Assembly (NCBI GenBank): GCA_964431625.1
Contig: CAYSJT010000002.1
Span: 1 to 36,085, forward strand
Direction of reading: 5' to 3'
Length of the DNA stretch: 36,085 nucleotides
Source: an uncultured Gammaproteobacteria bacterium
GTDB taxonomy: Bacteria; Patescibacteriota; Patescibacteriia; Patescibacteriales; UBA12465
In this document: in pieces, positions 8,120-36,085 of the stretch
Numbering within the stretch: the stretch's first letter is position 1
Layout of the letters: each line of letters begins with the position of its first letter
Program-made: the position numbers and the translations under genes
Notes under the pieces: model-generated
What the model was told of the DNA's origin: nothing
Seen by the model: only the letters and a program-made list of their open reading frames with translations
Database searches by the model: none

Positions 8120-8125
8120 CATAGG

Positions 8126-8424: not shown

Positions 8425-8477
8425 TAATATACGATTAATTAATTGTCGTCCTGTCGGGATGGCATTTTTATAAAAAT

Positions 8478-9401: not shown

Positions 9402-9461
9402 TTTTTTGTCTGTATAATATGTCCGTATTTTTTGCTATAATATAATAGCAGATATTTAAAT

Positions 9462-10751: not shown

Positions 10752-10754
10752 TTT

Positions 10755-11690
10755 ATGTCCTGGGTAGCAGTGGCCTTATCTGCCTATTTTTTGCTAGCTA
10801 TAGCCAATTTATTGGATAAGTTTTTGGTTGATAACGTGATCCGCAATAGCCGCGCCTATGCTTTTGTCGCTTGCTTGCTCAGCGCGTTAGTTTTCTTGGC
10901 CGCGCCCTGGTTTTTGCAATGGCCTGGCTTAGGCCTTTTTCTTTTTAATATCTTGATTGGCGCCATTTTTGCTGTTGCCCTCTGGATGCTATATGAGTCG
11001 TTACGTCGGGGCGAAGCCTCGCGAGTCCTGGTTTTTATCGGCGGTGCCACTCCGGTTTTTTCCGTTCTCTTTTCAACCTTGTTCTTCAAGGAAACATATT
11101 CTTATAGTCAATGGGCAGGCATTGTCACTTTATTGATTGGCATATTCGTCATCGCCTTCTTGCCAGTTGAAAGAAGTTTTCTAGCCAGGGTATCTTCAAA
11201 GCTCGGCTTAACGGGCAAGACGGGCGCCGGCGGGTTGATAGCCGCCCTGATTTCCGCTTTGGCTTATTCCCTTTATTTTGTTCTGAGCAAACAAGCTTAC
11301 CTCTCCCAGCCGTTTTTCAGTGCTTTTATTTGGACGCGCCTAGGCTCGCTTATTTTTGTCTTATTTTTTCTCTTTATAAGGGCCGATCGTTTGGCTATTC
11401 GAAATCTTTTTCAGCGTTCTGGTCCCAAGCGCGGAAAGTTATTGGTTATTTTAAATCAAGGCCTAGGATCCGCCGGTTTTATTTTGCAGAATTATGCAGT
11501 TTTTCTCGGATCAGTCGCCCTGGTCAATGCTCTTCAAGGAGCCCAATATGCATTTCTTTTGGTGATTAGCGCCGGCTTGGCGATCGTCAAACCGAAGCTG
11601 CTCAAAGAAAGCTTTTCTTGGCGCATAATTTTTCAGAAATTGGCTGCAGTCATGGTTATTGGTCTTGGTTTATATTTCATCACCCTATGA
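10755..11690 (+). CDS. EamA/DMT-superfamily-like 10-TM membrane protein
   Basis: 311 aa, about 10 hydrophobic helices arranged as two halves. The stop overlaps the next start (ATGA at 11687-11690). Confidence 0.6.
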   Translation: MSWVAVALSAYFLLAIANLLDKFLVDNVIRNSRAYAFVACLLSALVFLAAPWFLQWPGLGLFLFNILIGAIFAVALWMLYESLRRGEASRVLVFIGGATPVFSVLFSTLFFKETYSYSQWAGIVTLLIGIFVIAFLPVERSFLARVSSKLGLTGKTGAGGLIAALISALAYSLYFVLSKQAYLSQPFFSAFIWTRLGSLIFVLFFLFIRADRLAIRNLFQRSGPKRGKLLVILNQGLGSAGFILQNYAVFLGSVALVNALQGAQYAFLLVISAGLAIVKPKLLKESFSWRIIFQKLAAVMVIGLGLYFITL

Positions 11691-12733
11691 ACATGAAGAA
11701 AAAAGCCCAGAAAGACAAGCAAAGTAAGTTCGGGCGCCACGGCATTGTTTGGACCCTGGTTATATTAGCCCTTTTTTTCTTATTTGCTTGGGCCTTCAAG
11801 TTTGGGCGCCATTATCCATGGAAGATTGATATTGATAATCACAAGCCAGGCTATTTTGGCGTCACTTTTTCTACCAAATTTTGCCAGGAAATGGGGCTTG
11901 ATTGGCGCGAGGTTTTTCGAGCCGCCCTAGACGACCTGTCGGTTAAGCATGTCCGCTTGCCGATATATTGGGATGAGATAGAGAAAGAAGAGGGGAAGTT
12001 CGATTTTTCCACCTATGATTACATAATTGCCGAAGGGGCAAAACGGGACGTGAAGTTCATCGCCAATATTGGCTGGCGCCTGCCTCGCTGGCCGGAGTGC
12101 CATGCTCCAGAATGGGCCAGCCATAAAAGCTTGTCAGCCACTCAAGCCAGGGCGATAAATATGATTAGGGAGGTGGTTAATCATTATAAGGAAGAGCCCG
12201 GTATCGTCGCTTGGCAACTTGAAAATGAGCCTTTTTTTAACGCTTTCGGCGTCTGTCCGCCAAGCGACGACTGGTTTTTTGCTCAGGAACTGGAGGCTTT
12301 GAAAAAGCTTGATTCGCGTCCGGTAATTATTTCTGCTACCGGCGAGCTTAGCGCCTGGTTTAAGGAGGCTAGACTGGCCGATATTTTTGGCACCACCGTA
12401 TATCGGGTCGTTTGGGGGCCGATAGGTTATGTCCGTTATCCCATCCCGGCCTGGTTCTATCGCTTCAAGGCCTGGCTGGTTGGCATTCCTCAAGAAGACC
12501 GCTTGATTATTGAGCTGCAGGCTGAGCCCTGGGTGCCGGCTGGCAGCATCATCTACTTGCCAGAATCGGAAGCGACCAAGTCATTTAATGTCGAGCAGTT
12601 TAAAGCCAATCTTCAATATGCCATAAATGTTGATTTCCGTCAGGCATATCTCTGGGGCGTAGAGTGGTGGTATTGGCAGTATCAGAACGGTAACCCGGAG
12701 TATTGGCAGATAGCCAGGCGAATTTTTGATTAA
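11687..12733 (+). CDS. Membrane-anchored clan GH-A (TIM-barrel, GH5-like) glycoside hydrolase-like protein
   Basis: N-terminal basic segment plus one TM helix. WQLENEPF contains the N-E-P acid/base motif typical of clan GH-A. The start is taken at the ATG that overlaps the preceding stop. Confidence 0.55.
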   Translation: MNMKKKAQKDKQSKFGRHGIVWTLVILALFFLFAWAFKFGRHYPWKIDIDNHKPGYFGVTFSTKFCQEMGLDWREVFRAALDDLSVKHVRLPIYWDEIEKEEGKFDFSTYDYIIAEGAKRDVKFIANIGWRLPRWPECHAPEWASHKSLSATQARAINMIREVVNHYKEEPGIVAWQLENEPFFNAFGVCPPSDDWFFAQELEALKKLDSRPVIISATGELSAWFKEARLADIFGTTVYRVVWGPIGYVRYPIPAWFYRFKAWLVGIPQEDRLIIELQAEPWVPAGSIIYLPESEATKSFNVEQFKANLQYAINVDFRQAYLWGVEWWYWQYQNGNPEYWQIARRIFD

Positions 12734-12734
12734 T

Positions 12735-13439
12735 ATGTTGTCTATCGTCATCCCCACTTTAAATGAAGAAAAGTATTTACCCCAGCTTCTTCAGTCTATT
12801 CAAAGCCAGGAGTTTTCCGATTATGAAATAATAGTTTCCGATGGCGGCTCGCAAGATCGGACTGGCGAAATAGCTAAAAGTTCCGGCTGTCGCTTAGTAT
12901 CTGACTCAGCTCATCGCCACCCGGGCTGGCAAAGAAATATCGGGGCGGCTGCGGCTTTAGGAGACACCCTTCTTTTTTTAGATGCGGATTCTTATTTGCA
13001 GCCGGGATTCCTGGGCGATGTCGTGTCTGAATTCCAATCAAGAGATTTGGCGGTAGCGGGTTTTGCTATTAAGTTTTATCCTAACTCCCCCCTTTATTCT
13101 TTATTCGCCTTGTTTTTCAATGCCTTCCTGAGGTTTCGTCAATATTATTCTCCGAGTGCGGTTGGCGCCGGCCTTTTGGCTAAGAAATCAGCCCATGATC
13201 AAGCCGGCGGATTCGATACGAGCATCATTTTGGTTGAAGATTACGATTATTGTGTCCGTCTCTCCCGTTTTGGAAGATTCCGTATTTTAAAGAGCCGCCG
13301 CCTCCTTTATTCTTCCCGTCGTTTGAAACGTGATGGAGACTGGAATACCTTGGGCCGGTGGCTGAAGATGGGCCTGTATACCATATGCAAGCAGCGGATT
13401 AGGGAGAAAGTAATTAAATATGACTTCGGTAAGTTTTAA
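12735..13439 (+). CDS. Family 2 glycosyltransferase
   Basis: MLSIVIPTLNEEKYLPQLLQSIQSQEFSDYEIIVSDGGSQDRT... and LFLDADS (DxD). This is the classic GT2 N-terminal domain. Confidence 0.85.
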   Translation: MLSIVIPTLNEEKYLPQLLQSIQSQEFSDYEIIVSDGGSQDRTGEIAKSSGCRLVSDSAHRHPGWQRNIGAAAALGDTLLFLDADSYLQPGFLGDVVSEFQSRDLAVAGFAIKFYPNSPLYSLFALFFNAFLRFRQYYSPSAVGAGLLAKKSAHDQAGGFDTSIILVEDYDYCVRLSRFGRFRILKSRRLLYSSRRLKRDGDWNTLGRWLKMGLYTICKQRIREKVIKYDFGKF

Positions 13440-13830
13440 AAGCATTTTTTCCGGTTCAGACGCTTGGTTTAGGCTTCTTTTAGCTGCAGTTTTTCTGTCA
13501 GCTGGAATTTTTCGCATATTTAATCCAGCTGCGGCTAGCCTGGAAATGCAGCTTCTTGGCCTGCCCGTGGCCCTGTCTTGGTTGGTGATGGTGTTAGAAA
13601 TAATTACTGGTATAAGTTTACTGCTTAACTTTAAGACAAGGTTGATTAGTTTGGTTTTAGTTATTTTCGTTCTATTATCGCTTATCTGGGCTATTATTAA
13701 GGACGGTTCCGATATTTTGGCCGGGGCAGGCGAACTTTTTGTTTTTGACCTTAATCCGACAGATTTTTTTCTTCATTTAATTTTCTTGATTATTTTATTT
13801 TTTTTAGCCAATAAAAGTCAAGAAAATTGA
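13420..13830 (+). CDS. DoxX-like small integral membrane protein
   Basis: 136 aa with four hydrophobic helices. The N-terminal FRLLLAAVFLSAGIFRIFNP resembles DoxX family openings. It overlaps the GT2 gene by 20 nt. Confidence 0.5.
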   Translation: MTSVSFKSIFSGSDAWFRLLLAAVFLSAGIFRIFNPAAASLEMQLLGLPVALSWLVMVLEIITGISLLLNFKTRLISLVLVIFVLLSLIWAIIKDGSDILAGAGELFVFDLNPTDFFLHLIFLIILFFLANKSQEN

Positions 13831-13855
13831 TTTTATAAAAAATTTGAGCTATATT
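13827..13855 (+). promoter_or_regulatory. Candidate promoter for the 13884 ORF
   Basis: TTGATT (13827-13832), 17 nt, TATATT (13850-13855). Confidence 0.45.
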
Positions 13856-13883
13856 AGTATATAAGATATTAATTTATAAATTT

Positions 13884-14471
13884 ATGAAGTTCGAAACAAG
13901 CAGCCCTTCGGTTGACCAGAGGCCAGTTGAAGATAACTTGGCCCTAGAGACAGAGAATGAGGTCGATACCGCCGAATTGGCCAATAAACTTCTGCAAAAT
14001 GAACAGGAGGTAGTCAGGCTCACTTCCCTTAATAAAAAGCAGGACGAAGTTATTTATCAAGACACCCTTGATTCAATTAAGGCCGAGTCTGGCGCGCAGG
14101 AAAAGAACGAAGCTGAGGCAAGGAGGGCGCATCGGATAGATTTTACCAAGCGAGCCCTCCAAATGGTGATAGATAATTTACAGAATAAGATAGATAAGAA
14201 GGGTTTGGCCGGATTACTTACACCCAAAAAAGAGTTGGCTGGAGATATTAATGGATTAAAATTTCTGCAAGCTCAAGAGAGGGCGGGTTTCAATGTGGAA
14301 ATGCTTTTTGCCTATCCTTCGGTTGGCAAATTAGCTGATTCCGTTGTTAAGAAAGAGATTATTTCCATGATTAAGTCTGAATTTGACGAGCAGGATCAGC
14401 AAGTTTTTGAGGGTAATGAACAGGTTAGAAATCAGGTTGGTCGTCGGATGAGTAGCATTTCCGCTGGATAG
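13884..14471 (+). CDS. Hypothetical soluble protein, acidic, helical-looking, no domain recognised
   Basis: A 195-codon ORF flanked by its own promoter and terminator. Confidence 0.6.
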   Translation: MKFETSSPSVDQRPVEDNLALETENEVDTAELANKLLQNEQEVVRLTSLNKKQDEVIYQDTLDSIKAESGAQEKNEAEARRAHRIDFTKRALQMVIDNLQNKIDKKGLAGLLTPKKELAGDINGLKFLQAQERAGFNVEMLFAYPSVGKLADSVVKKEIISMIKSEFDEQDQQVFEGNEQVRNQVGRRMSSISAG

Positions 14472-14489
14472 ACATATTCAGCAGATGAT

Positions 14490-14518
14490 AAAAAATTGCC
14501 CCCACAGGGCAATTTTTT
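14490..14518. terminator. Bidirectional hairpin terminator
   Basis: AAAAAATTGCCC, loop CCAC-like, GGGCAATTTTTT. The A-tract and T-tract allow function on both strands. It lies between the 13884 ORF (+) and tRNA-Gly (-). Confidence 0.75.
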
Positions 14519-14523
14519 GTATG

Positions 14524-14596
14524 AGCGGGTAAGCGGAATCGAACCGCCATCTTCAGCTTGGAAGGCTGACATAATAAACCATTATACGATACCCGC
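14524..14596 (-). tRNA. tRNA-Gly (anticodon UCC)
   Basis: Reverse complement: acceptor GCGGGTA/TACCCGC, anticodon stem TCAGC/GCTGA, loop CTTCCAA, T-arm GGCGG-TTCGATT-CCGCT, discriminator U. 73 nt. Confidence 0.88.
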
Positions 14597-14640
14597 AACT
14601 CAGGTATTCTATAGCAAATAATTATTCTGGTCAATGGCTT

Positions 14641-15822
14641 TTAGCGCGTATCTCGGATTGATAGAACCGCGGCCAAGCCGAACAGGACAATGACCGAGAG
14701 GAAAAGAAATAGGAAGGGGAGAGGAAAGAAACTAAGGATTAATATGGCCAGAGCCGGACCGAGGATATAGCCGAGGGGAGCACTGGCTCTAAAAATATTA
14801 ATATGGCTGATGTCCTTGGCGTCTATTATTTTGAAGAAATATGATTCACGCATCGCTTCTATTAAGGCGGCGCCGACACGGCTGGAAAAAAGAACCAGGG
14901 CCCAGAGCCAAACAATCGGTTGTTTAATTAAAAAGAAAGAAAGCAAAGAGAGACTGAGGACAATGAAGCCGCCGGTCAATATTTCTTTCTCCCCAAAGTA
15001 TTTATCTGCCAGGATTCCGGCCGGGATTTCCAGAATAACGAAGGGGACCAGCATTAAGGAGAAGATCGGGCCGAGTTGGGCCCAACTCAATCCAAGGGTT
15101 TGGTGTAGATAAAAGGGGATGTAAACAACGGCTGAGCTGTAGAATATTTGTAGGAGCAGGGAAATAAAGAATATCCCCCGCAGATTGTTATTTTGCCAAG
15201 TTTCAATCAGAGCCGATTTAAGCGTTTTTTGGCTATATCTAGTTTGATCGCGCAGGCGCTTGTTTTGGAATAGGACAATCAGGTATATGGGCAGGACCAA
15301 GCAGGCGGCAATGAAAAATGGCAGGCAATAATCGCCAATAGAAATTAGGTAACTGGATAAGCTGGGGGCAATAATCCAGCCTAAATTAATAAAGGTAAAA
15401 TAGATAGTGCGGATGCGCCCGGTTGCGGCATTGTTAGAATAGTTCTCCAGCATCACATCCATATTTATCCAAATCAGGTTCGCGGCTATGGTGAAGAAAA
15501 CCATTGAGATGAAGGCGCTGATCGGTCCGTTCGCCATGGTGAGTCCGAGCAAGGCAGCAGCATAGACCAGAAGGACGGATTTGGCCACGAAGTAATTCCC
15601 CAGTCTTTTAATGGCTTTAGGGAAGGCCAGAATAAAGATGATAGAAGCCGAGTTGGCGACAATAAAGAAAAGACTAACCATCTTTAGGCTGACAAACTGG
15701 GATAGAAAATTTGATTGGATGTAAGCCGGCAGAGCCGCAGACACCGCCAGAAGTATGGCCAATAAATACAGGACGGCCAATCCAGACCGCCTGGCGCGGC
15801 TAAAGGGCAGGAGTTTTAGCAT
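14641..15822 (-). CDS. MFS transporter
   Basis: 393 aa with about 12 TM helices in a 6+6 arrangement and a central basic loop (NKRLRDQTRYSQK). Confidence 0.7.
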   Translation of the reverse strand: MLKLLPFSRARRSGLAVLYLLAILLAVSAALPAYIQSNFLSQFVSLKMVSLFFIVANSASIIFILAFPKAIKRLGNYFVAKSVLLVYAAALLGLTMANGPISAFISMVFFTIAANLIWINMDVMLENYSNNAATGRIRTIYFTFINLGWIIAPSLSSYLISIGDYCLPFFIAACLVLPIYLIVLFQNKRLRDQTRYSQKTLKSALIETWQNNNLRGIFFISLLLQIFYSSAVVYIPFYLHQTLGLSWAQLGPIFSLMLVPFVILEIPAGILADKYFGEKEILTGGFIVLSLSLLSFFLIKQPIVWLWALVLFSSRVGAALIEAMRESYFFKIIDAKDISHINIFRASAPLGYILGPALAILILSFFPLPFLFLFLSVIVLFGLAAVLSIRDTR

Positions 15823-19358: not shown

Positions 19359-19940
19359 TTAATTTATTTCCACCACTCTAATCTCGGCGACTTTGACGCC
19401 GAACTTGATGGCATCGCTCCTTTCTTTCATCCAGACATCCACCCGGTCGCTATGGCGCTTGTTCATCCTGTCCCGGACAACAAAGACGCGGTCGCCGAAC
19501 AGTTCTGGGATTTGCACCTTAGTGCCGAACTTGAGAAAGTTGGCGGCAATGGTATCCTCCTCGCCGTGGGCGCAGACATTGAAGCCGTTGGCAGTGATGC
19601 AGGGGGAATCGTCAGTTTGGGCCGCTTCGGAATTATAGGCGGTAATGACATGGCGGCTGGATCTGATAACTTTGATTTCCGGGCTTGAACTAGCCATATC
19701 CTCAGCCAACTTAGCCGCCTCCTGATCCATCGCCTCCTCCTTGCTTATTGTCTCCAGGCTGATGATTTCTTCATCCTGGCTGGGAGCAGCCGCCTGAGCC
19801 TGTTTAACCGCGTAATCGGCTAAAACCGGGCCGTAGAAGAGGGCGAATTGGAAGAGCATGACTATGAAGATGAGCAGGGACAAGCCCTGCCGCATACTAA
19901 GAGGCACTATTTCTTCGCCCAGTTTTTGGAGCATTTTCAT
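19359..19940 (-). CDS. Membrane-anchored 3D-domain protein (MltA/RlpA-like double-psi barrel; putative cell-wall binding or lytic protein)
   Basis: One N-terminal TM helix and an acidic linker. The C-terminal VITAYNSEAAQTDDSPCITANG...GTKVQIPELFGDRVFVVRDRMNKRHSDRVDVWM carries the three conserved Asp positions of the 3D domain. Confidence 0.75.
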   Translation of the reverse strand: MKMLQKLGEEIVPLSMRQGLSLLIFIVMLFQFALFYGPVLADYAVKQAQAAAPSQDEEIISLETISKEEAMDQEAAKLAEDMASSSPEIKVIRSSRHVITAYNSEAAQTDDSPCITANGFNVCAHGEEDTIAANFLKFGTKVQIPELFGDRVFVVRDRMNKRHSDRVDVWMKERSDAIKFGVKVAEIRVVEIN

Positions 19941-20187: not shown

Positions 20188-21024
20188 ATGAAAAAGTTAG
20201 CACTAGTATTGTTCGCCACCTTAGTGGCAGTTTCCATGTTCGCCCAACCGACCCGCCAGCAGCGCAAGCAGCTGGATATGTTGGAGGAAGAAATAACCAG
20301 GGAAAAGATCGCCCTGGTAAAGCTGGAGGGCAGCCTCTACCCGGATTATTCCGAGAAGGTTGCTTCTCTCAAGGCCGAGAACGATTCTGTAAAACAGATC
20401 GTCCTCCCGACCGACTCCGCAGCCGCTGCTAAACGCGCCCTGGAAACCCGGCTCCTGGTTGAGAAGAACCAGAAGCAGATTGTCCACCTGACAGCCGCTT
20501 CGGCCGAGGCGTATAAAAACGCCGAGATCGAAGCTAAGATCACTGAGAAAAAAAACAAGATCCGCGTGCTCGAGGAGCAGCGGGATCGCATTTTTTTCTC
20601 GGCGGCCACTACCGATGAAATCCCCAGGGAGATGAACCACTGCACTACTCGCCGCCGCCACAACGCCAACCATATCAGGCGGGAGGAACTGGTTATTCAA
20701 AAAGTGGAGAACACCTTAAATGGCCAGAGTGGTCAAGCGATAACTCCAGTCGCTGATTCAGCAGGGTTCATGGTCATTTTGCACAATGATTATGCCCTGC
20801 CGATCCAGTTCTCCATCGCCGGAATTAACGGTGGCGACAAAAAAAGTTATGTACTGCGAAAGGGAGAAAAGACCAAAGCCTATCTCGTCCCCGGCCAATA
20901 CAGGGTCACCTTCCTGCGCGGAGGCAACACCATTGGCCACCCGGTCGTTCTGACCATAGACGGGTCGGTGCATAACTATATGGGCGAAGATTGTTTCGGC
21001 TTCGCCTATATGCCAAGATATTAG
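20188..21024 (+). CDS. Secreted hypothetical protein: signal peptide, coiled-coil-like middle, beta-rich C-terminal domain
   Basis: MKKLALVLFATLVAVSMFA|QP is a signal peptide. A heptad-like E/K/L/Q-rich segment follows, then a C-terminal 110 aa rich in beta-type residues. By eye the GC content is higher than in the neighbours. Confidence 0.65.
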   Translation: MKKLALVLFATLVAVSMFAQPTRQQRKQLDMLEEEITREKIALVKLEGSLYPDYSEKVASLKAENDSVKQIVLPTDSAAAAKRALETRLLVEKNQKQIVHLTAASAEAYKNAEIEAKITEKKNKIRVLEEQRDRIFFSAATTDEIPREMNHCTTRRRHNANHIRREELVIQKVENTLNGQSGQAITPVADSAGFMVILHNDYALPIQFSIAGINGGDKKSYVLRKGEKTKAYLVPGQYRVTFLRGGNTIGHPVVLTIDGSVHNYMGEDCFGFAYMPRY

Positions 21025-21042: not shown

Positions 21043-21076
21043 AAAAAAAGGAGCTATCGCTGATAGCTCCGTTTTT
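21043..21076. terminator. Bidirectional hairpin terminator
   Basis: A7, GGAGCTATC (21050-21058), 3-nt loop, GATAGCTCC (21062-21070), then GTTTTT. It is shared by the convergent 20188 ORF and the pilin-like array. Confidence 0.8.
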
Positions 21077-21095: not shown

Positions 21096-21506
21096 TTATA
21101 TCGGATCACTGCTACCTCCCTGAGGGGCGCCGCCGCTGAAGGGGAGATAGGTGAAGATGAAGTAGGTGATGGCATAGGCGGCCAGGACGATGACTAAACC
21201 GATGACCGCCGTTTTGATTATCCCCATAGCCTTCTTAGCCTGTTCTTCATTGCCGGCAGCCGTCATCCATTGGAATCCGGCCACAACCATTAAGACGACG
21301 AAGATGAGGGCGAGGAAGCCAAGGGCGATCTTGATTATGTTGGCGATAAGAATACTAAGCGGAATGTCCCCTAGCTGCGCGGTTGTGGCCATTTCATCAG
21401 TTAGGTCTTTTAACTTTTCAGGGCTATTTAATAATTGGGCCGAGGCAGGATCTATAGAAAAAAATATTACTGATATCAAACCAATAATAATGAAGATTTT
21501 TTTCAT
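21096..21506 (-). CDS. Pilin-like paralogue P1: signal peptide plus two-TM small protein (VirB2/TrbC-like topology)
   Basis: 136 aa. Signal peptide ends ASA|Q. Core is AGFQWMTAAGNEEQAKKAMGIIKTAVIGLVIVLAAYAITYF. Confidence 0.8.
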   Translation of the reverse strand: MKKIFIIIGLISVIFFSIDPASAQLLNSPEKLKDLTDEMATTAQLGDIPLSILIANIIKIALGFLALIFVVLMVVAGFQWMTAAGNEEQAKKAMGIIKTAVIGLVIVLAAYAITYFIFTYLPFSGGAPQGGSSDPI

Positions 21507-21513
21507 AAACGGT

Positions 21514-21909
21514 TTACAATATTAGTTTTTCAAAGACAAAGTTCCAGATAACCCAGGCTGAGAGAGAAACGACTAGTCCGATGATGGCTGTTTTAATGGT
21601 GGCCATTGCCTTTTTAGTTTTTTCCTCATTACCACTGGCCGTCATCCAGCTATAGCCGGCGATAACCATAAGTATTATAAAAACGATGCCGGTGAAGTTA
21701 ATAAAAGCACCGACAATAGTCCCGATAATGATCGGCGTGGAGGCAATGGTGGAATCAGTAACATACCCCCCTTTATCAGCTACATTCTGCAGTCTCTTTA
21801 TCAGCGGCGCGTCTCCGTTGGTCGCAGCATTTTGTGCTGAGGCTAGGAGTGGTAAGGCTAGGCAGACGGCCAAAATAGCTATAATTAAGGACTTTTTGAG
21901 TTTTAGCAT
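21514..21909 (-). CDS. Pilin-like paralogue P2
   Basis: 131 aa. Signal peptide ends ASA|Q. Core is AGYSWMTASGNEEKTKKAMATIKTAIIGLVVSLSAWVIW. Confidence 0.8.
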   Translation of the reverse strand: MLKLKKSLIIAILAVCLALPLLASAQNAATNGDAPLIKRLQNVADKGGYVTDSTIASTPIIIGTIVGAFINFTGIVFIILMVIAGYSWMTASGNEEKTKKAMATIKTAIIGLVVSLSAWVIWNFVFEKLIL

Positions 21910-21913
21910 ATAT

Positions 21914-22252
21914 TTAGCCTTTAATGAATTTTGCTAAGATGGTTGAGAAGCCGTAACTGAGAGCATAACCGAGCAGGACAATTACCAAGCCAATAATAAG
22001 TGATTGGATTCTGGCGCGTGCTTTTTTTATTTTTTCCTCATTTCCGGCCGCTTGCATCCAATCATTGCCGGCGACAAATATGAGGGTAATAAATATTATT
22101 CCAAGTATGGAGAGAGCCAGTCTTATTATTGCGCCTATCATCTCTTCCAGGTTAGCGCCAGCTGAGGGGTACATTCCAAGATTTTCAACATTCTCCTTGA
22201 ACCTGAATGCAGTAGGCCCGTTATCTTTGATTATGGAAGCTATTTGGCGCAT
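21914..22252 (-). CDS. Pilin-like paralogue P3 (no N-terminal signal peptide)
   Basis: 112 aa. Core is AGNDWMQAAGNEEKIKKARARIQSLIIGLVIVLLGYALSY. The N-terminus MRQIASIIKDNGPTAFRFKEN is hydrophilic. Confidence 0.7.
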   Translation of the reverse strand: MRQIASIIKDNGPTAFRFKENVENLGMYPSAGANLEEMIGAIIRLALSILGIIFITLIFVAGNDWMQAAGNEEKIKKARARIQSLIIGLVIVLLGYALSYGFSTILAKFIKG

Positions 22253-22253
22253 A

Positions 22254-22652
22254 TTATTCCCAGAAGTAATTTAAGAAGAAATAGCTGATAGCATAGGCTG
22301 CAATGGTGATAATAAGTCCGAGGAGCGCCCCCATGACTATCTTATTAGCCTTCTTCACCCTCTCTTCGTTGCCGTCGGCTGTCATCCAGGTAAAGCCGCC
22401 GTATAAGATTAGAGATAGGAAAATTACGCCAAGTAATCCAAGGACAGCATAAATTATTGTGCTAATAATGTCTTCCACAGTGCTGGCTGTTTGGTCAGTA
22501 ACAAATCCAGCTGTATCAGCTGCTTTATTAAGTCCGCTCTGAGAGCCGAAATCATAGCTTTGAGCGAAGAGGTGGTAGGATGGAGCAAATAGAATAAGGC
22601 AAGAAATAGTTAACGCAAGCAAGCGGCTCATATCATTTAAGGATAATTTCAT
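22254..22652 (-). CDS. Pilin-like paralogue P4
   Basis: Signal peptide ends LFA|Q. Core is GGFTWMTADGNEERVKKANKIVMGALLGLIITIAAYAISYF. The start is ambiguous: TTG 22658, ATG 22652 or ATG 22631. Confidence 0.78.
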   Translation of the reverse strand: MKLSLNDMSRLLALTISCLILFAPSYHLFAQSYDFGSQSGLNKAADTAGFVTDQTASTVEDIISTIIYAVLGLLGVIFLSLILYGGFTWMTADGNEERVKKANKIVMGALLGLIITIAAYAISYFFLNYFWE

Positions 22653-23022
22653 TACCAATGAACATGGTTAGGGCATAGGCAGCGAAAACAATGATGATAC
22701 CGATAACCGCGTTCATAAGCAGACTCTTGGCTTTTGTAATCTGGGCTTCGTTTCCAGCGGCGGTCATCCAGGAAATGCCGGCGTAGACCATAAGGATGAA
22801 GAAGAGGACGCCGATGAAACGTAGTAAAGCCCCAATTACCTGGCCGGTTTTTTCTGGGATAAAACCACTATAGTCCCCTGAAGTTTTGTTTTTAAAAGCA
22901 TCAACTTCTCCGGCTGTTTGGTTCAAGCCGTCCAGGGTATTAACAATTTGGGCTGAAACAGGATAAGCGACAGCGCTGAGTAAAGCAAAGGCGAAAATAA
23001 TAACCAAAGCTATTTTTTTCAT
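22633..23022 (-). CDS. Pilin-like paralogue P5
   Basis: The start is taken at MKKIALVIIFAFALLSAVAYPVSA|Q (ATG 23022). Core is AGISWMTAAGNEAQITKAKSLLMNAVIGIIIVFAAYALTMF. The longer ORF reaching 23103 lacks a signal-peptide-like beginning. Confidence 0.78.
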   Translation of the reverse strand: MKKIALVIIFAFALLSAVAYPVSAQIVNTLDGLNQTAGEVDAFKNKTSGDYSGFIPEKTGQVIGALLRFIGVLFFILMVYAGISWMTAAGNEAQITKAKSLLMNAVIGIIIVFAAYALTMFIGNEIILK

Positions 23023-23114
23023 AAGCGAAGATTTAATCACTGAACTAGGAGGAAGGCAGGCTTCCGCCCAGTTCAGTGGCCCCCATAATCCGATGGGAAC
23101 CACGTATTTTAATC

Positions 23115-23501
23115 CTAGTTTCCGCTAGTGGCGTTGTAGATGGAGTTGACGATGAAGGTCGCCAAGGCCCAAGCCGCCATAACGATGACCAGGCCGATGA
23201 CGCCAGCACCCAGGAGTTTCTTAGATTCAGAAACCTTGTCTTCGTTGCCGCCAGCCGTCATCCACTTGAAGCCGCCGATGATGATGATAATGACAGCGAT
23301 GACGCCCAGGAAGCCCAGGGCCATATTGATGATGCGGCCGACGATTTCTCTCGGATCCGAGTTGGATAAGGCGTTGTTAAGGCCGTTTTCCACCTCGTTA
23401 AAGCCAAATTGGTTTTGAGCCAGGGCCGGCATAGCGACCAAGGGTAGGACCAGTAAGGAAATGATGGCGAAAGAAATCAAGTGTTTGGAAATTTTTTTCA
23501 T
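23115..23501 (-). CDS. Pilin-like paralogue P6 (first gene of the array; the only strong SD in the window)
   Basis: 128 aa. Signal peptide ends ALA|Q. Core is GGFKWMTAGGNEDKVSESKKLLGAGVIGLVIVMAAWALATF. It is preceded by GAAGGGGGGTGAACT-ATG. Confidence 0.82.
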   Translation of the reverse strand: MKKISKHLISFAIISLLVLPLVAMPALAQNQFGFNEVENGLNNALSNSDPREIVGRIINMALGFLGVIAVIIIIIGGFKWMTAGGNEDKVSESKKLLGAGVIGLVIVMAAWALATFIVNSIYNATSGN

Positions 23502-23549
23502 AGTTCACCCCCCTTCTTTTCAACAAATTAGTTTTTGTTTTACTCTTTA

Positions 23550-23578
23550 ATTTTAGCATATTGCCTAAAACAAGACAA
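23550..23578 (-). promoter_or_regulatory. Candidate promoter of the pilin-like array
   Basis: On the minus strand: TTGTCT (23578-23573), 17 nt, TAAAAT (23555-23550), about 45 nt upstream of the P6 ATG. Confidence 0.45.
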
Positions 23579-23638
23579 ATAAAAAGGGCTATGTTAGAAT
23601 AAGGTTAGGTCTTGGCCAACTTTAAGCGATTCTTGTCT

Positions 23639-25231
23639 ATGTTGGATTTTTTCAAAAAGATAAAATTTATCTATTTTTTCTGGTTTTTTTTCTACCTTTT
23701 TATTCTTTTCCTGCTCTGGCGGGGGGCGGCCAGCTACCTTGATCCAGATTTCGGCTGGCATTTGTCCGTCGGCCAGGAGATAGCCGTCTCTGGCCAAGTT
23801 CCCGGGGCTAATCATTATAACTATACATATACCGGGAATTGGGTTGATCATGAATGGCTTAGTAATTTAATTATCGCTAACATTTACGAAGTTTTTGGCT
23901 ATCAGGGCCTTATTTTCCTTTTTTCCTTGCTGGTTGTTTTAGCGCTTATCTGGCTGAACTTATTATTCCGTTTCATTGCTGGAAGGAACAGCCCAGAAAT
24001 ACTAATCGCCGTCCTGCAGGTTTTCGGCTTAATGGCGGCTTGGCCCCATTTCGGCGTCAGAGTACAGCAAGTCGCCCTTCTTTTTCTTCTTGGCTTACTG
24101 ATTATTCTATATTTTTACGACCAAAGCCGCCGTTGGATCTGGCTTTTGCCCCTGCCTCTTCTGTTTTATTTTTGGGCCAATCTTCACGCCAGCTTTTTGA
24201 TGGGTTTGGCCGTCCTGCTTTTTTGGCTGGGAGTCAAGGGGGCTGTTTGGCTATTTGCTAAGACCAGGCTATCTTTCAGGTTGGCTGATCAGATTATTTC
24301 TCGGCGCCAAGTTTTGGCGGTCTCAGTTTTCTTCGCCTTATCTCTGGCCGCGACATTATTTACTCCATATCGCCTTGAGCTGTATGCCTTTTTAAGCGAT
24401 TATGGCAATACAGTTTACCAGTCCTATATCATGGAATGGCTTTCCCAGTTCAGCTACCCCTTCTATTATTGGCAGCTCCTTTATCTCGCCTTTGTCGGTA
24501 CGGCTATTTTCTTGTCTCTGTATTTTGCTTTCGGCCGGGAGAAAAAGCCGCTCAATTTTTGGCATCTGGCTTTAGCCGGGCTTTTCTTTTTGCTCAGCTT
24601 CCAATCCCGACGGCACTTTCCTTTACTTTTTGTGGCTTCTTTTCCTTTGTTCGCTTCGCTGGCGGCTAATTTTTCTTTATCGCATCGTCGGCATTTCAGT
24701 CACTGGCCGCTTTGGCTCAAGGGGTATTTAATTATTTGTCTAAGCGTTGCCAGCCTGCTTCAAATATATTTGATAGATTTTAGGCCGGATCCGCGCCGGG
24801 ATTTTTCTGACGACTATCCGGTAGCGGCTGCAGACTTTCTTTGCCGGGATAACTCCACTGCCGCAGGGAACTTGTTCAGCGAATACGTCTGGGGAGGCTA
24901 TCTTATCTGGACTTGCCCGCAAAGGCGGCTGTTTATAGATGGCCGATTGCCCCAAGTTCCTTATGCCGGCCATACTTTCCTGGAAGAATATCTGGAATTC
25001 CTTAAAAGCGATGCCGACTATCAGGCCAAGCTGGACCAATATGATATTTCTTTGGTGCTTATCAAATCGCCCCAGCCGGATTTAAAGGCGAAGCCTTGGG
25101 AAAAGCTTCTTTTTCAGGTGACTGACGCTGATTTGAGCCAGCGCAGCCATTTCAGGGAGTATTTGGAAATGTCTCCGGCTTGGAGCCGTTTATATTCTGA
25201 TGATACCGCCGTAATTTATTCCCGACAGTAG
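23639..25231 (+). CDS. Polytopic membrane protein with a C-terminal extracytoplasmic domain; GT-C-fold glycosyltransferase-like
   Basis: About 530 aa with 11 or more TM helices. An acidic motif lies in the first external loop (YLDPDFGWHL, then WVDHEW). The soluble C-terminal part is about 150 aa (YVWGGYLIW...RLFIDGR). It is immediately followed by a polyprenyl-phosphate-type GT2. Family call is by eye only. Confidence 0.5.
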   Translation: MLDFFKKIKFIYFFWFFFYLFILFLLWRGAASYLDPDFGWHLSVGQEIAVSGQVPGANHYNYTYTGNWVDHEWLSNLIIANIYEVFGYQGLIFLFSLLVVLALIWLNLLFRFIAGRNSPEILIAVLQVFGLMAAWPHFGVRVQQVALLFLLGLLIILYFYDQSRRWIWLLPLPLLFYFWANLHASFLMGLAVLLFWLGVKGAVWLFAKTRLSFRLADQIISRRQVLAVSVFFALSLAATLFTPYRLELYAFLSDYGNTVYQSYIMEWLSQFSYPFYYWQLLYLAFVGTAIFLSLYFAFGREKKPLNFWHLALAGLFFLLSFQSRRHFPLLFVASFPLFASLAANFSLSHRRHFSHWPLWLKGYLIICLSVASLLQIYLIDFRPDPRRDFSDDYPVAAADFLCRDNSTAAGNLFSEYVWGGYLIWTCPQRRLFIDGRLPQVPYAGHTFLEEYLEFLKSDADYQAKLDQYDISLVLIKSPQPDLKAKPWEKLLFQVTDADLSQRSHFREYLEMSPAWSRLYSDDTAVIYSRQ

Positions 25232-25233
25232 TT

Positions 25234-25968
25234 ATGCGCATAGATTTCTGTCTGCCAATTAAAGATGAAGAAATTATTTTAGCGGCTAATGTTTCTGAGC
25301 TGCGCTCTTTTCTGCGCGACAATTTTTCCGGCCTGGATTGGCGTTTGGTTTTGCTGGTTAACGGTTCTTCCGACCGATCCGGGGAAATAGCCAGAGAATT
25401 CGCCGCTCGTTATCCGGAGAAGATAATTAGCTCTGAATTGGCCGAGGGCGGCAAGGGAAGGGCTTTAAAAGCCTGGTTTTCCTCCAGCCCGGTCGACATT
25501 CTTGTCTTTATGGACGCCGATCTGGCCACTTCCTTAGATTGCCTGCCAAGTCTTTTAGCTCCGATTATTGCCGGCCGAGCTGACGTGGTTGTCGGCTCCC
25601 GCCTTTTGCCCGGCTCCCAGACCAACCGACGCTATTGGCGCAGCCTGGTATCTCATGCCTATAATTTAATTTCCCGCCTAGTTCTTGGCCATAGTTTTTC
25701 CGACCTACAATGCGGCTTCAAGGCCTTCAAGGCAGCCGCTTTTAATCGCATTGCCCCCTTCTGCCAGGATGACAAGTGGTTCTTTGATACTGAGTGGTTG
25801 ATGATCTTACGCGCTTCGGGGGCCAAGATAGAGGAGTTGGCGATAAGCTGGCGGGATGACCGCCAGCAAAATCGACCCAGCCAGGTTAAGGTGGCCAGAG
25901 ACACTTGGCGCTTCCTGGTTCAGCTTTTTCGCTTGCGCCGCCGCCTGAAACATTTAAGAATCAATTAG
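25234..25968 (+). CDS. GT2 polyprenyl-phosphate glycosyltransferase (GtrB / ArnC / DPM1-like)
   Basis: 244 aa. LVNGSSDRSGEIAREFAARYPEKI, GKGRALK, VFMDADLATS (DxD) and VVVGSRLLPGS resemble dolichyl/undecaprenyl-phosphate sugar synthases. Confidence 0.75.
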   Translation: MRIDFCLPIKDEEIILAANVSELRSFLRDNFSGLDWRLVLLVNGSSDRSGEIAREFAARYPEKIISSELAEGGKGRALKAWFSSSPVDILVFMDADLATSLDCLPSLLAPIIAGRADVVVGSRLLPGSQTNRRYWRSLVSHAYNLISRLVLGHSFSDLQCGFKAFKAAAFNRIAPFCQDDKWFFDTEWLMILRASGAKIEELAISWRDDRQQNRPSQVKVARDTWRFLVQLFRLRRRLKHLRIN

Positions 25969-26960: not shown

Positions 26961-27620
26961 TTAATTGACTAATATTTGCCGGTTGATAATTTTTTCCCGA
27001 CTGTATTTCTTTTTTGACGTTATTGTAATTTCATTCATTCCCCGCTTGAGATTGACAATCTGGGTAAAGATGCCGTCGTGGTTATTGAGGACGAGTTCGC
27101 CGTTTATCCTGACTTCCGCCTCTTTGTCCGTCTGGCCCTCGATGATGAAAGTCAGAGAGCTGGTGGCCAGGTTTCCGGCCGGGCTGGAAATTTCCAATTC
27201 CGGCGGAGAAATAATTTTTTTGAAATAGAAAGACAGGTATAACAGGCAAAAGACAATGGCTAGGACGGCGATAAGATTGCGGAATATTTTAGGCAGGACC
27301 AGGAATTGCTTTTGACTAATAACTTTTTGGGAAAAAGGGTCGGTGTCTTTATTGGCTGAGAGCTTAGCCTCAATCGCACTTAGCATCTCCTTGTCTTTTA
27401 TCCCCAAAAAAGATGCATATTCCCTGAAAAAGTTTTTGCCGTATAAACCGGCCGGCAATTGCTCCAATCTTTCCTCTTCCAGGCAAACTAAGTATTCTTG
27501 CCGGATATGCAGGCGGCGGGAGGCCTCTTCCAGGCGAATATTCTTGGCTAACCTGGCTTGGCGGAGCTTTTCGCCCCAGCTTTCCTTGGGATATATTCGT
27601 TTGGGGACGAAAGCGCTCAT
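26961..27620 (-). CDS. RodZ-like protein: N-terminal HTH, single TM, C-terminal beta domain
   Basis: GEKLRQARLAKNIRLEEASRRLHIRQEYLVCLEEERLEQLP is an XRE/RodZ-type HTH. It is followed by the TM helix LIAVLAIVFCLLYLSFYF. Confidence 0.65.
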   Translation of the reverse strand: MSAFVPKRIYPKESWGEKLRQARLAKNIRLEEASRRLHIRQEYLVCLEEERLEQLPAGLYGKNFFREYASFLGIKDKEMLSAIEAKLSANKDTDPFSQKVISQKQFLVLPKIFRNLIAVLAIVFCLLYLSFYFKKIISPPELEISSPAGNLATSSLTFIIEGQTDKEAEVRINGELVLNNHDGIFTQIVNLKRGMNEITITSKKKYSREKIINRQILVN

Positions 27621-27625: not shown

Positions 27626-28069
27626 CTAGACTGATTTAAGGGTCATCTCCTTTACCACCCTGGGGACGGCTATTTTACCATTCCAATCTAGGCCCATGGA
27701 GCGGAGGACAAAGCGGATTATCAGGTAGCTGGCAAAGACGATTATCAGGCCGATGATGGCGGCGACAATTATTTTCCTGGCTTGGGAAATCTTTTCGCTG
27801 CTGCCGGCGGAGAGCATGAAAGAAAGCCCGCCGTAGATGAACATGACTAGGGCCAGGGAGCCGACGACTCCGAGTATCCACTGAGAAACATTTACCGCCA
27901 GCTCGACGAAGTCATTGACTTCATAATTGCCGCAGTTGCCGCTGTACCCCTCCGGGCAGTATCCGGCGCTATTATTGCTTTCGGGGATAATCTGGCCTTG
28001 AGCCAGGACGGACGGGGAAGAGAGAAGAAGGCAGGCCAGGAAGCTAAAGACGATGATAACTTTTTTCAT
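27626..28069 (-). CDS. Pilin-like paralogue P7 (diverged, remote from the array)
   Basis: 147 aa. Signal peptide ends VLA|Q. The variable segment contains Cys (AGYCPEGYSGNCGNY). Core is GGLSFMLSAGSSEKISQARKIIVAAIIGLIIVFASYLI, with a longer C-terminal tail. Confidence 0.7.
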   Translation of the reverse strand: MKKVIIVFSFLACLLLSSPSVLAQGQIIPESNNSAGYCPEGYSGNCGNYEVNDFVELAVNVSQWILGVVGSLALVMFIYGGLSFMLSAGSSEKISQARKIIVAAIIGLIIVFASYLIIRFVLRSMGLDWNGKIAVPRVVKEMTLKSV

Positions 28070-28073: not shown

Positions 28074-29453
28074 TTAATTTATTGTCTGTTGGACTTTGGC
28101 GGCCGCATTATTAATAATTCCGCTTAACTTGTCACTGGTGGCGGTTATGGCCGCGTCAATCATTTCTTTTATGGCCATTTCAGCGGCGTTGGCATCTCGG
28201 CCTTTGTACCAGCTTTTGGCAGTGAGCACTTGATCGGCGAATACCCCCACTTTGTCGTCCTCTCTCTGGCTGGAGACCAGAGAGCGCAGGGCGGTCGGCC
28301 GATTGGTTTTTTCCAAGTAGCTTTTAGCCTGTTCTTCCTGGGTGATAAACTGGATGAAATCCCAAGCTTCGTTAGCATGCTGGCTTTTTTTAGAGACCAC
28401 CTCCACCCAGTAGTTGGCGAAGTTAATATTAGTCGGCGGCGTGCCTTCTATTTGAGGCAGCTTGGCAATTGAAAAGTTGAGTTTCGGCGCCAGAGATTCT
28501 ATGCTGGCGCGGTGATATGAGTAGCCGAAGAAGATGGCCAGGTTGCCGCTGGTGAACATTTCCAGGGAATTGGGCAAAGAGTTGTTCCAGGCATAGGCTT
28601 CTTTGCTCGGATTGGCAAAGTCGGCGTAGAAGCGCAAGGCTTCCAGGCCGGGGTTGTAGCCGCTGGATTTAGCGAATTCCGGCACTTGGTTGAAAACAAC
28701 CTGGCCGGCGTCATTTATCATCACGGCTCCGTTTTGCATCATGAGAATGGAGAGGATATCGCTGAAGCGCTCGATATTAGCGCTGCCTCCCAGCCCGGCC
28801 CCGGATTGAACCACGCCCTGTTTGGGGTCTTGCTTAGTCATTTTTTTGACTGCCTGAAGAAACTCTTTATTCCAATATCGGGGCGCCTGGGTGATACCGG
28901 CGTTATTAAAGAGATCCTTGTTATAGTATATAGCCAAGGTATCGACTGACAGAGGCAGCCCGTATATTTGCCCGTCGTCTAAGACAACATCATGGCTGAC
29001 CACATCAACAAACTTGTCCTTTAATTGGCTGACAGTCAAGCTTTTACTGGTTCTTAATTCAGTAGTCGCTTCTTTTTTAATCGTTCCCTTGATTACCGGA
29101 TAGGCCATGGTTGTGCTTTCCGGCAAGGGAGCTAACTTTGATTGGTATTTAACCAGCCAGGTATTATGGATGGAAAAAATATCCGGCCCCCGGTCTTCGG
29201 CCATGGCGTTGAGCAAGGCGCTTTCGTATTCTTCATAGCGCAACTTGCGGTATTCAATGGTGATGAAAGGATGGAGCGCCTTATAGCGGCTGAGGATTTC
29301 CTCGAAGGCGTCCGGCCCGTCAAAGACCCGCCAGTAGGTGAGAGTAATGGGCTGCATGGCTTCTTTAGTCTCCTTGTTGGTGAGCTTGCAGCCAAAGCCA
29401 GAAGTGAGCAGAAAGATGGAAATCAGGGCGAGGAAGGCGATTTTTTTGGACAT
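28074..29453 (-). CDS. ABC-transporter family-1 (sugar-type) substrate-binding lipoprotein
   Basis: 459 aa. Has a lipobox LTSGFG|C after the signal peptide, and an SBP_bac_1-like body (ITLTYWRVFDG..., LAIYYNKDLF...). Confidence 0.8.
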   Translation of the reverse strand: MSKKIAFLALISIFLLTSGFGCKLTNKETKEAMQPITLTYWRVFDGPDAFEEILSRYKALHPFITIEYRKLRYEEYESALLNAMAEDRGPDIFSIHNTWLVKYQSKLAPLPESTTMAYPVIKGTIKKEATTELRTSKSLTVSQLKDKFVDVVSHDVVLDDGQIYGLPLSVDTLAIYYNKDLFNNAGITQAPRYWNKEFLQAVKKMTKQDPKQGVVQSGAGLGGSANIERFSDILSILMMQNGAVMINDAGQVVFNQVPEFAKSSGYNPGLEALRFYADFANPSKEAYAWNNSLPNSLEMFTSGNLAIFFGYSYHRASIESLAPKLNFSIAKLPQIEGTPPTNINFANYWVEVVSKKSQHANEAWDFIQFITQEEQAKSYLEKTNRPTALRSLVSSQREDDKVGVFADQVLTAKSWYKGRDANAAEMAIKEMIDAAITATSDKLSGIINNAAAKVQQTIN

Positions 29454-33357: not shown

Positions 33358-33441
33358 GGGCGAGTGGTGAAACTGGTAGACACACAAGCTTGAGGGGCTT
33401 GGGAGAGCAATCTCGTGGAGGTTCGAGTCCTCTCTCGCCCA
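33358..33441 (+). tRNA. tRNA-Leu (anticodon GAG)
   Basis: Acceptor GGGCGAG/CTCGCCC, anticodon stem CAAGC/GCTTG, loop TTGAGGG, long variable arm, T-arm GGAGG-TTCGAGT-CCTCT. 84 nt. Confidence 0.9.
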
Positions 33442-33452
33442 CCGCGGATGCG

Positions 33453-33526
33453 GGGCGCATAGCTCAGCTGGTTAGAGCACTTCGTTTACACCGAAGGGGT
33501 CCAGGGTTCGAGTCCTTGTGCGCCCA
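33453..33526 (+). tRNA. tRNA-Val (anticodon UAC)
   Basis: Acceptor GGGCGCA/TGCGCCC, D-arm GCTC-AGCTGGTTA-GAGC, anticodon stem CTTCG/CGAAG, loop TTTACAC, T-arm CAGGG-TTCGAGT-CCTTG. 74 nt. Confidence 0.9.
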
Positions 33527-36013: not shown

Positions 36014-36085
36014 TGGAGCGGTAGTTCAGCTGGTTAGAACGCCTGCCTGTCACGCAGGAGGTCGCGGGTTCGAGTCCCGTCCGTT
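36014..36085 (+). tRNA. tRNA-Asp (anticodon GUC), truncated by the window end (last about 3 nt missing)
   Basis: Acceptor GGAGCGG, D-arm GTTC-AGCTGGTTA-GAAC, anticodon stem CCTGC/GCAGG, loop CTGTCAC, T-arm GCGGG-TTCGAGT-CCCGT. Confidence 0.88.

Follow-up and report, generated by a model that had tools for sequence, protein, structure and literature searches.

Organization of the Pilin Array

The window analyzed here is a stretch of 36,085 nucleotides (nt) of contig CAYSJT010000002.1 (assembly GCA_964431625.1), and the element under study is an array of six tandem genes on its minus strand (21096–23501), whose products resemble the VirB2/TrbC pilins of type IV secretion systems (T4SS), together with a seventh copy located about 4 kb away. 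The host of the array is a Falkowbacteria-like, ultrasmall member of the Patescibacteria, class ABY1. The genes were numbered 1–6 in the direction of transcription, gene 1 being the P6 and gene 6 the P1 of a preliminary description of this DNA. The six minus-strand open reading frames (ORFs) listed there were all found, the spacing of 1–7 nt with a single gap of 92 nt was confirmed (92, approximately 1, 1, 4, and 7 nt from gene 1 to gene 6), and the seventh, solo copy was located at 27626–28069, also on the minus strand.

Gene 1 (P6, 23115–23501) encodes a protein of 128 amino acids (aa), gene 2 (P5, 22633–23022) one of 129 aa when read from MKKIALV, and gene 3 (P4, 22254 to 22631 or 22658) one of 125–134 aa depending on the start chosen; the ATG at 22631 yields 125 aa and a gap of 1 nt, and the start of this gene differs among the gene calls on other contigs. 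Gene 4 (P3, 21914–22252) encodes 112 aa and lacks a signal peptide, gene 5 (P2, 21514–21909) encodes 131 aa, and gene 6 (P1, 21096–21506) encodes 136 aa, ending in an LPFSGG motif and a Gly/Ser-rich tail. The solo copy encodes 147 aa.

The common plan proposed for the six proteins was seen in a MAFFT alignment: a signal peptide (except in gene 4), a variable segment, a helix, a loop, and a second helix, with the loop G-x-x-W-M-(T/Q)-A-x-G-N-E present in all six. The identity of the array proteins to the product of gene 6 was 23–41%, and paralogues within one genome were only about 39% identical to each other. An identical gene 1 protein, accompanied by the same array, was found on 10 independent metagenome contigs. 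Hence, the locus is real and stable, and not a product of chance or of assembly.

Assignment to the VirB2/TrbC Superfamily

The gathering cutoff of the Pfam family T4SS_pilin (PF18895, 26.6 bits) was passed by all seven copies, with scores from 27.9 to 42.1 bits (40.3, 31.1, 31.1, 27.9, 36.6, and 38.6 bits for genes 1–6, respectively, and 42.1 bits for the solo copy). Gene 1 also exceeded the cutoff of TrbC/VirB2 (PF04956), with 29.8 against 27.9 bits over positions 1–98 of the 98 in the profile. When the 56 orthologues of gene 1 were searched, all of them matched T4SS_pilin and 21 matched TrbC at E ≤ 1e-3. The best NCBIfam match of gene 1, gene 6, and the solo copy was the Mbov_0395 family (NF045849), with 34.2, 36.1, and 23.8 bits over the two-helix core; these scores lie below the cutoff of 40 bits, so the pilins are related to this family without being members of it. 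The PF18895-type family itself is large, with 78,568 clusters at 50% identity (E ≤ 1e-3). The architecture expected of a conjugative pilin, namely a predicted Sec signal peptide, two hydrophobic helices, and a short charged loop, was found in the array proteins, gene 4 differing by its missing signal peptide. Profile matches and architecture together supported the VirB2/TrbC-like assignment made in the preliminary description, and the array proteins can be placed in the VirB2/TrbC superfamily on the strength of their sequences.

The name “pilin” invites confusion with the type IV pilus (T4P), on which Patescibacteria do rely, and the proteins are small enough to be taken for T4P or competence pseudopilins. 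Nevertheless, the class III motif G|F/M-x-x-x-E was found in none of the seven copies, the signal peptides were of the Sec/signal peptidase I (SPase I) type, two hydrophobic helices were predicted where a single N-terminal helix with a globular head would be expected, and no T4P family of Pfam was matched. This identity was rejected from sequence and is considered highly improbable.

A cleaved signal peptide followed by two membrane helices would place both termini outside and the loop inside, as had been read from the positive-inside rule. This topology was backed by the content of Lys and Arg, which was 0.138 per residue in the loop and 0.062 and 0.058 in the tails (a 2.2-fold excess in the loop), by the Ig-like domains (Big_5/TIG/fn3) that follow helix 2 in relatives, and by the Cys residues in the tails of the solo copies. 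The AlphaFold2 (AF2) model of gene 1, with a predicted local distance difference test (pLDDT) score of 78.9, consisted of a signal helix and a hairpin of two long helices (residues 50–81 and 87–125) joined by a loop of five residues.

Locus L055 encodes two large proteins (900 aa at 7184–9886 and 1955 aa at 9926–15793) whose T4SS_pilin domain, at the N-terminus, precedes Big_5, TIG, and fn3 domains; their domain order marks them as a pilin module bearing a large, adhesin-like outer part.

Conservation of Gene Number, Order, and Position

The orthologous locus was compared across 79 GTDB loci, most of them titled Candidatus Falkowbacteria or Patescibacteria group, with a best identity of 75%, and the layout of the array in these relatives was mapped with a hidden Markov model built from the pilins. 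In most of the 79 loci, a solo copy was followed, approximately 4.5–5 kb further on, by a run of pilin genes; among the 74 complete arrays, this run comprised six genes in 53, seven in 9, and eight in 4. Gene 2 had a positional orthologue in 49 of 52 species. When a tree was built from four species, each pilin grouped by its position and never with the pilins of its own genome; over 52 loci, 334 of the 347 best cross-species matches were to a pilin of the same position. This grouping indicated that the seven paralogues predate the clade and have been kept in order. Judged by these comparisons, the array is an old gene set of fixed order and not a fast-turnover array. Gene 1 was the most conserved member in every region (core, 70–78% identity; variable segment, 40%), the other positions showing 45–65% and 18–31%, respectively.

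The age and order of the paralogues bear on the suggestion, made for Patescibacteria (Quinonero-Coronel et al., 2025, PMC12102498), that such copies form a reservoir from which alternative major subunits are drawn to vary antigens or host range, a role also put forward for the virB2 copies of Bartonella and Anaplasma. The divergence is indeed focused in the exposed N-terminal segment (18–40% identity, against 45–78% in the core), and the low identity between paralogues of the same genome would suit a reservoir as well. The preliminary description had read this pattern as diversification of a surface-exposed part; the N-terminal segment did prove to be the most variable, but the paralogues are old and kept by position (334/347). 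Copies serving variation would be expected to group by genome through recent duplication or exchange, and no such grouping, nor any sign of recent duplication or gene conversion, was observed. Furthermore, six genes are kept in 53 of 74 arrays, the same set recurs in strains from 10 samples, and gaps of 1–7 nt within one operon imply co-expression. Old positional paralogues argue for distinct roles and against a variation reservoir, which was rejected on this positional orthology and is regarded as improbable.

A further argument against a reservoir came from “polypilins,” predicted single proteins in which 2–17 pilin units are joined by linkers of 35–40 residues behind one signal peptide. Since each unit begins and ends outside, fusion preserves the topology, and the fusion of units is sensible only if neighbors act in one assembly, which argues for co-assembly. 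Gene 6 was found duplicated and fused in one species. The polypilins, predicted from gene calls, included P0241 (552 aa), P0245 (1775 aa), P0001–P0013, and the product of 10001–10702 in locus L015, and one six-unit polypilin mirrored the six-gene array.

Many of the records that carry the locus (L021, L023, L025, L029, and others) bear the title “uncultured Gammaproteobacteria bacterium,” and one is labeled “Candidatus Nanoarchaeia archaeon.” Such titles of metagenome-assembled genome records in GTDB are probably mislabeled submissions.

A Conserved Double-Hairpin RNA After Gene 1

The only long gap of the array, between genes 1 and 2, contains a predicted RNA of two abutting hairpins of about 10 and 17 base pairs (bp), located at 23031–23105 on the minus strand. 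The gap folded with a minimum free energy of −41.3 kcal/mol (z = −5.7), and the equivalent gaps of three other species gave z values from −6.4 to −8.0. When a sequence-only alignment of 32 species was analyzed with RNAalifold, 27 pairs were obtained, 25 of them with compensatory changes. Paired cells reached 93.1%, against 77.9% in shuffled alignments (none of 500 shuffles attained the observed value) and 38–48% with slid partners, and the covariation score was 0.552 against 0.249; the seed sequences had been picked for having two hairpins, a choice that favors pairing.

A covariance model built from this seed scored 66 bits at the window site and, in a search of 1.36 Mb, returned 65 matches on the gene strand in 64 of 82 sources, about 30 of these loci lying outside the seed. 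Every gene-strand match fell in the gap directly 3′ of a pilin gene, which, with a single exception, was the gene 1 orthologue; an extra copy occurred in one locus. The other matches were only weaker, antisense ones at the same palindromic site. The double hairpin was seen at the same position in loci L011, L012, L015, and L018–L096. In a search with the 4227 covariance models of Rfam, the window gave only tRNAs and a 16S rRNA end at the gathering score, and for the RNA element itself only chance-level matches at E up to 10.

The possibility that the hairpins form a classical terminator was ruled out, because the consensus 3′ of the second hairpin is GUGAAUAA and not a U-tract; a crude count of U-tracts at the hairpins was noisy and indecisive. 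The first hairpin is conserved in sequence as well (GUGAUUCUCAU...AUGGGAAUCAC), a hint that a protein or an RNase may recognize it. Judging from its structure and position, the double hairpin probably raises the message of gene 1 relative to that of genes 2–6. Gene 1 would be the likely major subunit, on account of its conservation in every region and of the covarying RNA.

Candidate Promoter and Terminator

A promoter-like site, TTGTCT-17-TAAAAT with an upstream TG, was detected by a consensus scan ahead of gene 1 (23550–23578, minus strand). The single promoter proposed in the preliminary description thus has a matching site (23578–23550), but sites of this class are not enriched: eight were counted in the region, compared with 5.1 ± 2.3 in shuffled sequences, so the statement that the array depends on a single promoter stays a candidate. 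The shared bidirectional terminator, in turn, proved real. It is an intrinsic terminator at 21050–21070, with a 9-bp stem (five G-C pairs), a 3-nt loop, and T-runs on both strands (GGAGCTATC-AGC-GATAGCTCC), and it is shared with the convergent gene at 20188–21024.

Signal Peptides and the Ala–Gln Junction

A signal peptide ending in Ala and followed by Gln was found in five of the six array proteins and not, as first proposed, in every one, gene 4 having no signal peptide. The orthologues of gene 4 mostly keep theirs (e.g., in L011), and the 112-aa form is common to all strains of this species; the protein may be inserted independently of Sec or may be on its way to loss. In relatives, the Ala–Gln junction occurred in 208 of 384 proteins (approximately 54%), compared with 159 of 1164 control windows (14%), and is therefore enriched without being the universal junction that had been considered.

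The junction had also been offered as a hint of head-to-tail cyclization, by analogy with Agrobacterium VirB2. This hint turned out to be weak: just over half of the relatives have the junction, the C-terminal tails are the least conserved region of the proteins (16–32% identity), and no TraF-like peptidase was found in the window. The junction would fit ordinary cleavage by signal peptidase, perhaps followed by pyroglutamate formation; cyclization of the array pilins is unsupported, and nothing in their sequences points specifically to it.

Separation of the Array From T4SS Genes

The absence of T4SS machinery from the window was confirmed by a domain scan of ORFs of at least 100 aa, in which no VirB4, VirB6, VirD4, or relaxase domain was found. 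The rest of the window encodes housekeeping functions: IF3, L20, RNase J, solute-binding proteins, bactofilin, thioredoxin reductase, and Lgt, as well as a PEP synthase/PPDK-type enzyme, SMC, L19, TsaE, signal peptidase II, tRNAs, and the 5′ end of 16S rRNA. Likewise, when the large ORFs that do not belong to the conserved flanking clusters were scanned with Pfam in about 80 loci, no VirB4 was detected within ±10 kb of the array, the ORFs matching instead PBP1, FtsH, H+-PPase, P-type ATPase, PolA, RelA, and similar families. The sole T4SS-type neighbor among the fetched loci was a coupling-protein-like ATPase at the single-pilin locus L093, where the pilin (7638–8024) is directly followed by the ATPase (8096–10666; TrwB_AAD_bind, T4SS-DNA_transf, and TraG-D_C domains).

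Of the two options left by this absence, machinery encoded elsewhere or a different surface structure, the first agrees with the data on relatives. Six genomes with the orthologous array belong to class ABY1 and are entered under “Presence of VirB4: Yes” in a published survey (Table S1 of PMC12102498). In one of them, GCA_000999715.1, VirB4 and TrsD are genes 572–573, and the only VirB2 scored is gene 711 of 794 (Table S3 of PMC12102498). Machinery encoded elsewhere is thus the supported option, by inference from relatives. The single VirB2 listed for this assembly (loci L046/L011) compares with seven PF18895 genes at the locus, which suggests that ABY1 arrays may be under-counted. In the same survey, 1135 of 1948 assemblies have pilins in the vicinity of virB4, and about 40% of the pilin-bearing assemblies have pilins away from virB4.

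The main rival to a pilus takes this separation at face value: the proteins would stay in the membrane as two-helix hairpins and assemble into a mixed-subunit ring, channel, or envelope scaffold, never extruded and independent of any T4SS, the pilus being suggested only by the family name. The array was never found beside T4SS genes in about 80 species, its surroundings are housekeeping genes, and the longest fused polypeptides comprise 17 units, or 34 helices. The best, non-significant Foldseek matches of the gene 1 model were generic helical hairpins, e.g., ATP-synthase subunit c, which forms c-rings, and a T4SS pilus is yet to be observed in Patescibacteria (PMC12857230). On the other hand, gene 1 passes TrbC/VirB2 over the full length of the profile, the arrays of Saccharimonadia lie inside a T4SS cluster, with both being essential (PMC10633639), and at L093 a pilin directly precedes a T4SS coupling-protein-like ATPase. 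The fused units keep both termini outside, so they are compatible with a filament too. On this evidence, a membrane-resident assembly without a filament appears rather unlikely.

Neighboring Genes

Divergently from the array, two putative glycosyltransferase genes lie on the plus strand. The first (23612–25231), called as 530 aa, gave no match in Pfam or NCBIfam, and its 735 homologues are all “hypothetical.” Its AF2 model was of high quality (pLDDT 92; predicted template modeling score, 0.91), and the top 20 Foldseek matches in the Protein Data Bank (PDB) were all glycosyltransferases of the GT-C fold (E from 7e-7 to 5e-3, probability 1.0), in the order DPY19 (E 7e-7), STT3/AglB/PglB, ArnT, and AftA/AftD, so that enzymes which modify proteins headed the list. 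A D35-x-D37 motif was invariant in 64 homologues. According to the model, the product combines the polytopic fold and the D-x-D-type motif of the GT-C superfamily, and it is found, unannotated, in Patescibacteria only. The second gene (25234–25968) encodes a GT2 glycosyltransferase (Glycos_transf_2, E 3e-20) with sub-threshold NCBIfam matches to AglJ, dolichyl-phosphate hexose transferase, and ArnC. By these similarities, it is probably a polyprenyl-phosphate sugar synthase-like enzyme, making the donor for its GT-C partner.

The GT-C/GT2 pair accompanied the array in 45 loci, and in some of the remaining ones its place was taken by other genes of GT-C type (PMT_2, DUF2079), a pattern suggestive of a glycosylation step acting on the pilins or on the envelope. 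The idea that the GT-C neighbor N-glycosylates the pilins was rejected: the exposed pilin segments contained 179 N-x-S/T sequons against 177.5 in shuffled sequences, and loci with and without the GT-C enzyme were alike. Since the region is syntenic by descent and the sequons are at expectation, the link between the enzyme and the pilins, drawn from synteny, is a lead and not a result.

A second lead concerns gene 6. The motif LPF(S/T)GG was found in 29 of 54 orthologues at position 6, which span L011–L045, and at no other position. In the window (21096–21140), the motif is followed by a tail rich in Gly, Ser, Thr, and Pro. It resembles the LPXTG signal of sortases, but the hydrophobic and charged sorting tail is missing, and no sortase gene was found in the 36-kb window.

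The solo pilin forms an orthologous group of its own, and it adjoins an SBP_bac_1 solute-binding gene in other species as well. Cys residues occur in its exposed N-terminal segment, and its longer C-terminal tail is Cys-rich in L011. On one side of the gene there is always the SBP_bac_1 gene, and on the other a gene that encodes HTH_25 and Glucodextran_B domains (neighbors at 26961–27620 and 28074–29453 in the window); the latter is, in our own reading of its domains, RodZ-like.

Downstream of the array, the convergent gene at 20188–21024 (plus strand) encodes 278 aa with a signal peptide and no Pfam family, and the gene at 19359–19940 (minus strand) encodes 193 aa, with no Pfam family and a faint match to an EntA-like cell-wall-binding protein. 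Unannotated genes stood at these positions in the four other species inspected. Positions 1–60 of the window (minus strand) are the 5′ end of 16S rRNA, and the window ends inside a tRNA, with six tRNA genes in all (7820–8119, 14524–14596, 33358–33526, and 36015–36085). Additionally, locus L071 (1323–4523) encodes a 1066-aa FtsH homologue into whose AAA module an intein, recognized by its Intein_splicing domain, is inserted.

Discussion

The reading that we favor, and consider reasonably probable, is that the pilins, exported by Sec, are subunits of a single pilus-like T4SS structure of mixed composition, with the T4SS encoded elsewhere and gene 1 as the major subunit. According to this proposal, each pilin would be exported by Sec and cleaved by signal peptidase I, usually between Ala and Gln, to leave a two-helix membrane hairpin with both ends outside and the W-M-T-A-x-G-N-E loop in the cytoplasm. 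A monoderm-type T4SS encoded elsewhere (VirB4/TrsD/VirB6) would take up these subunits and build a pilus-like surface structure from them. The seven paralogues would be an old, fixed set assembling together, not interchangeable variants. Gene 1 would most likely provide the major subunit, the double hairpin probably raising its message over that of genes 2–6, among which the gaps of 1–7 nt suggest coupled translation.

Several observations weigh against this proposal. T4SS pili have not been observed in any Patescibacterium; such a pilus has been called an “intriguing possibility” (PMC12857230). The array stands apart from T4SS genes in about 80 species, and neither dependence on a T4SS nor co-regulation with it is implied by the locus. 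PF04956 gave at most 14 bits or no match for genes 2–6, that is, for five of the six array proteins, and a sequence profile search of the PDB returned nothing below E = 6 and neither VirB2 nor TraA. The Foldseek search of the gene 1 model against the PDB gave no significant match, and VirB2 and TraA were not among the 50 matches listed; a two-helix hairpin is too generic for such a test, and the fold result was weighed neither way. Gene 4 lacks a signal peptide, its ATG lying 1 nt past the stop of gene 3 with no remnant of such a peptide upstream. Finally, the consensus GUGAAUAA after the second hairpin offers no U-tract, and the hairpins may act by partial termination or attenuation, by 3′ protection, or by RNase processing.

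A more detailed version of the proposal can be put forward only tentatively, as a possibility. In it, the filament would be built by Falkowbacteria-type Patescibacteria and would consist of seven fixed, non-interchangeable VirB2-like subunits (gene 1 as the major one, five minor ones from the operon, and the solo, Cys-containing one) in ratios set by the double-hairpin RNA, which would be new, with possible modification by the GT-C enzyme or anchoring by LPF(S/T)GG via subunit 6, and would be encoded apart from the secretion machine to serve a host-dependent lifestyle. If this were true, it would be the first T4SS pilus with several kinds of subunit, as well as the first from a monoderm.

The T4SS of Patescibacteria is essential in the one species tested, and the locus sharpens the questions of what it does and of whether pilus building is within the reach of a monoderm T4SS, without answering either. 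Because the pilin set is fixed in number and order throughout one large clade, the paralogues probably have a role apiece. Gene 1 is singled out as the probable major subunit, the conserved RNA would give a handle on subunit ratios, and the GT-C glycosyltransferase and the LPXTG-like tail provide concrete hypotheses for modification or anchoring.

Comparison With Known Systems

In the pap, fim, and puf operons, a stem-loop after the first structural gene sets the ratios of the subunits. The array resembles them in having the putative major structural gene first, a stable hairpin in the sole long gap, and closely packed genes thereafter. It differs in that its element comprises two abutting hairpins, the first with a conserved sequence, and the likeness is an analogy only.

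VirB2 of Agrobacterium, TrbC of RP4, and TraA of F share with the array proteins a signal peptide, two helices, a short charged loop, and termini on the outside. The array differs from these systems in its shorter signal peptides (approximately 23–29 aa), its monoderm host, and its six or seven paralogues instead of one, as well as in the absence of adjacent VirB machinery, of evidence for cyclization or for a TraF-type peptidase, and of a match to a solved pilin. The Mbov_0395 family (NF045849), from integrative and conjugative elements (ICEs) of Mycoplasma, has a similar two-helix core, a monoderm host, and a system of the mating-pair formation (MPF) FATA type, but the pilins score 23.8–36.1 bits, under its cutoff of 40 bits. 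As a sub-threshold profile match, this similarity to a Mycoplasma ICE pilin questions the claim that MPF-FATA systems lack VirB2-like proteins.

The virB2 clusters of Bartonella and Anaplasma also contain several tandem copies that differ most in their exposed parts (PMC12102498). These clusters are interpreted as variation devices of diderm pathogens, whereas the copies in the window are ancient positional orthologues across an order-level clade.

Similar small proteins in candidate phyla had been thought never to have been characterized, a statement that is out of date. In Patescibacteria, 441 “VirB2 arrays” of 2–11 genes have been catalogued in 383 assemblies (PMC12102498), and a six-pilin array was essential by transposon sequencing (Tn-seq) in Southlakia epibionticum ML1 (Wang et al., 2023, PMC10633639); a review from 2025 also describes the Southlakia pilins as six (PMC12857230). 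A predicted virB2 of TM7x shows higher expression in stable symbiosis, and PF18895 is the dominant domain of freshwater-specific protein clusters.

Southlakia ML1, a member of the Saccharimonadia, is a monoderm Patescibacterium with six structurally alike, sequence-divergent VirB2-like genes in tandem, as in the window, and its T4SS has no recognizable relaxase (PMC10633639). Its array lies inside the T4SS cluster SEML1_0006-0019, whereas the array described here lies among housekeeping genes with no T4SS gene in 36 kb, belongs to class ABY1/Falkowbacteria, and is complemented by a seventh, solo copy.

The array also corresponds to the published definition of 2–11 PF04956/PF18895 genes of low identity, in tandem or one gene apart (PMC12102498). 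The catalogued arrays come mainly from Microgenomatia and Saccharimonadia, and this one from ABY1; in the available portion of the survey, no positional orthology, conserved locus, RNA element, or GT-C neighbor was found. This type of array is therefore already published, and what the locus adds is mainly the fixed set of seven paralogues, the RNA element, and the leads given by the GT-C enzyme and the LPXTG-like tail.

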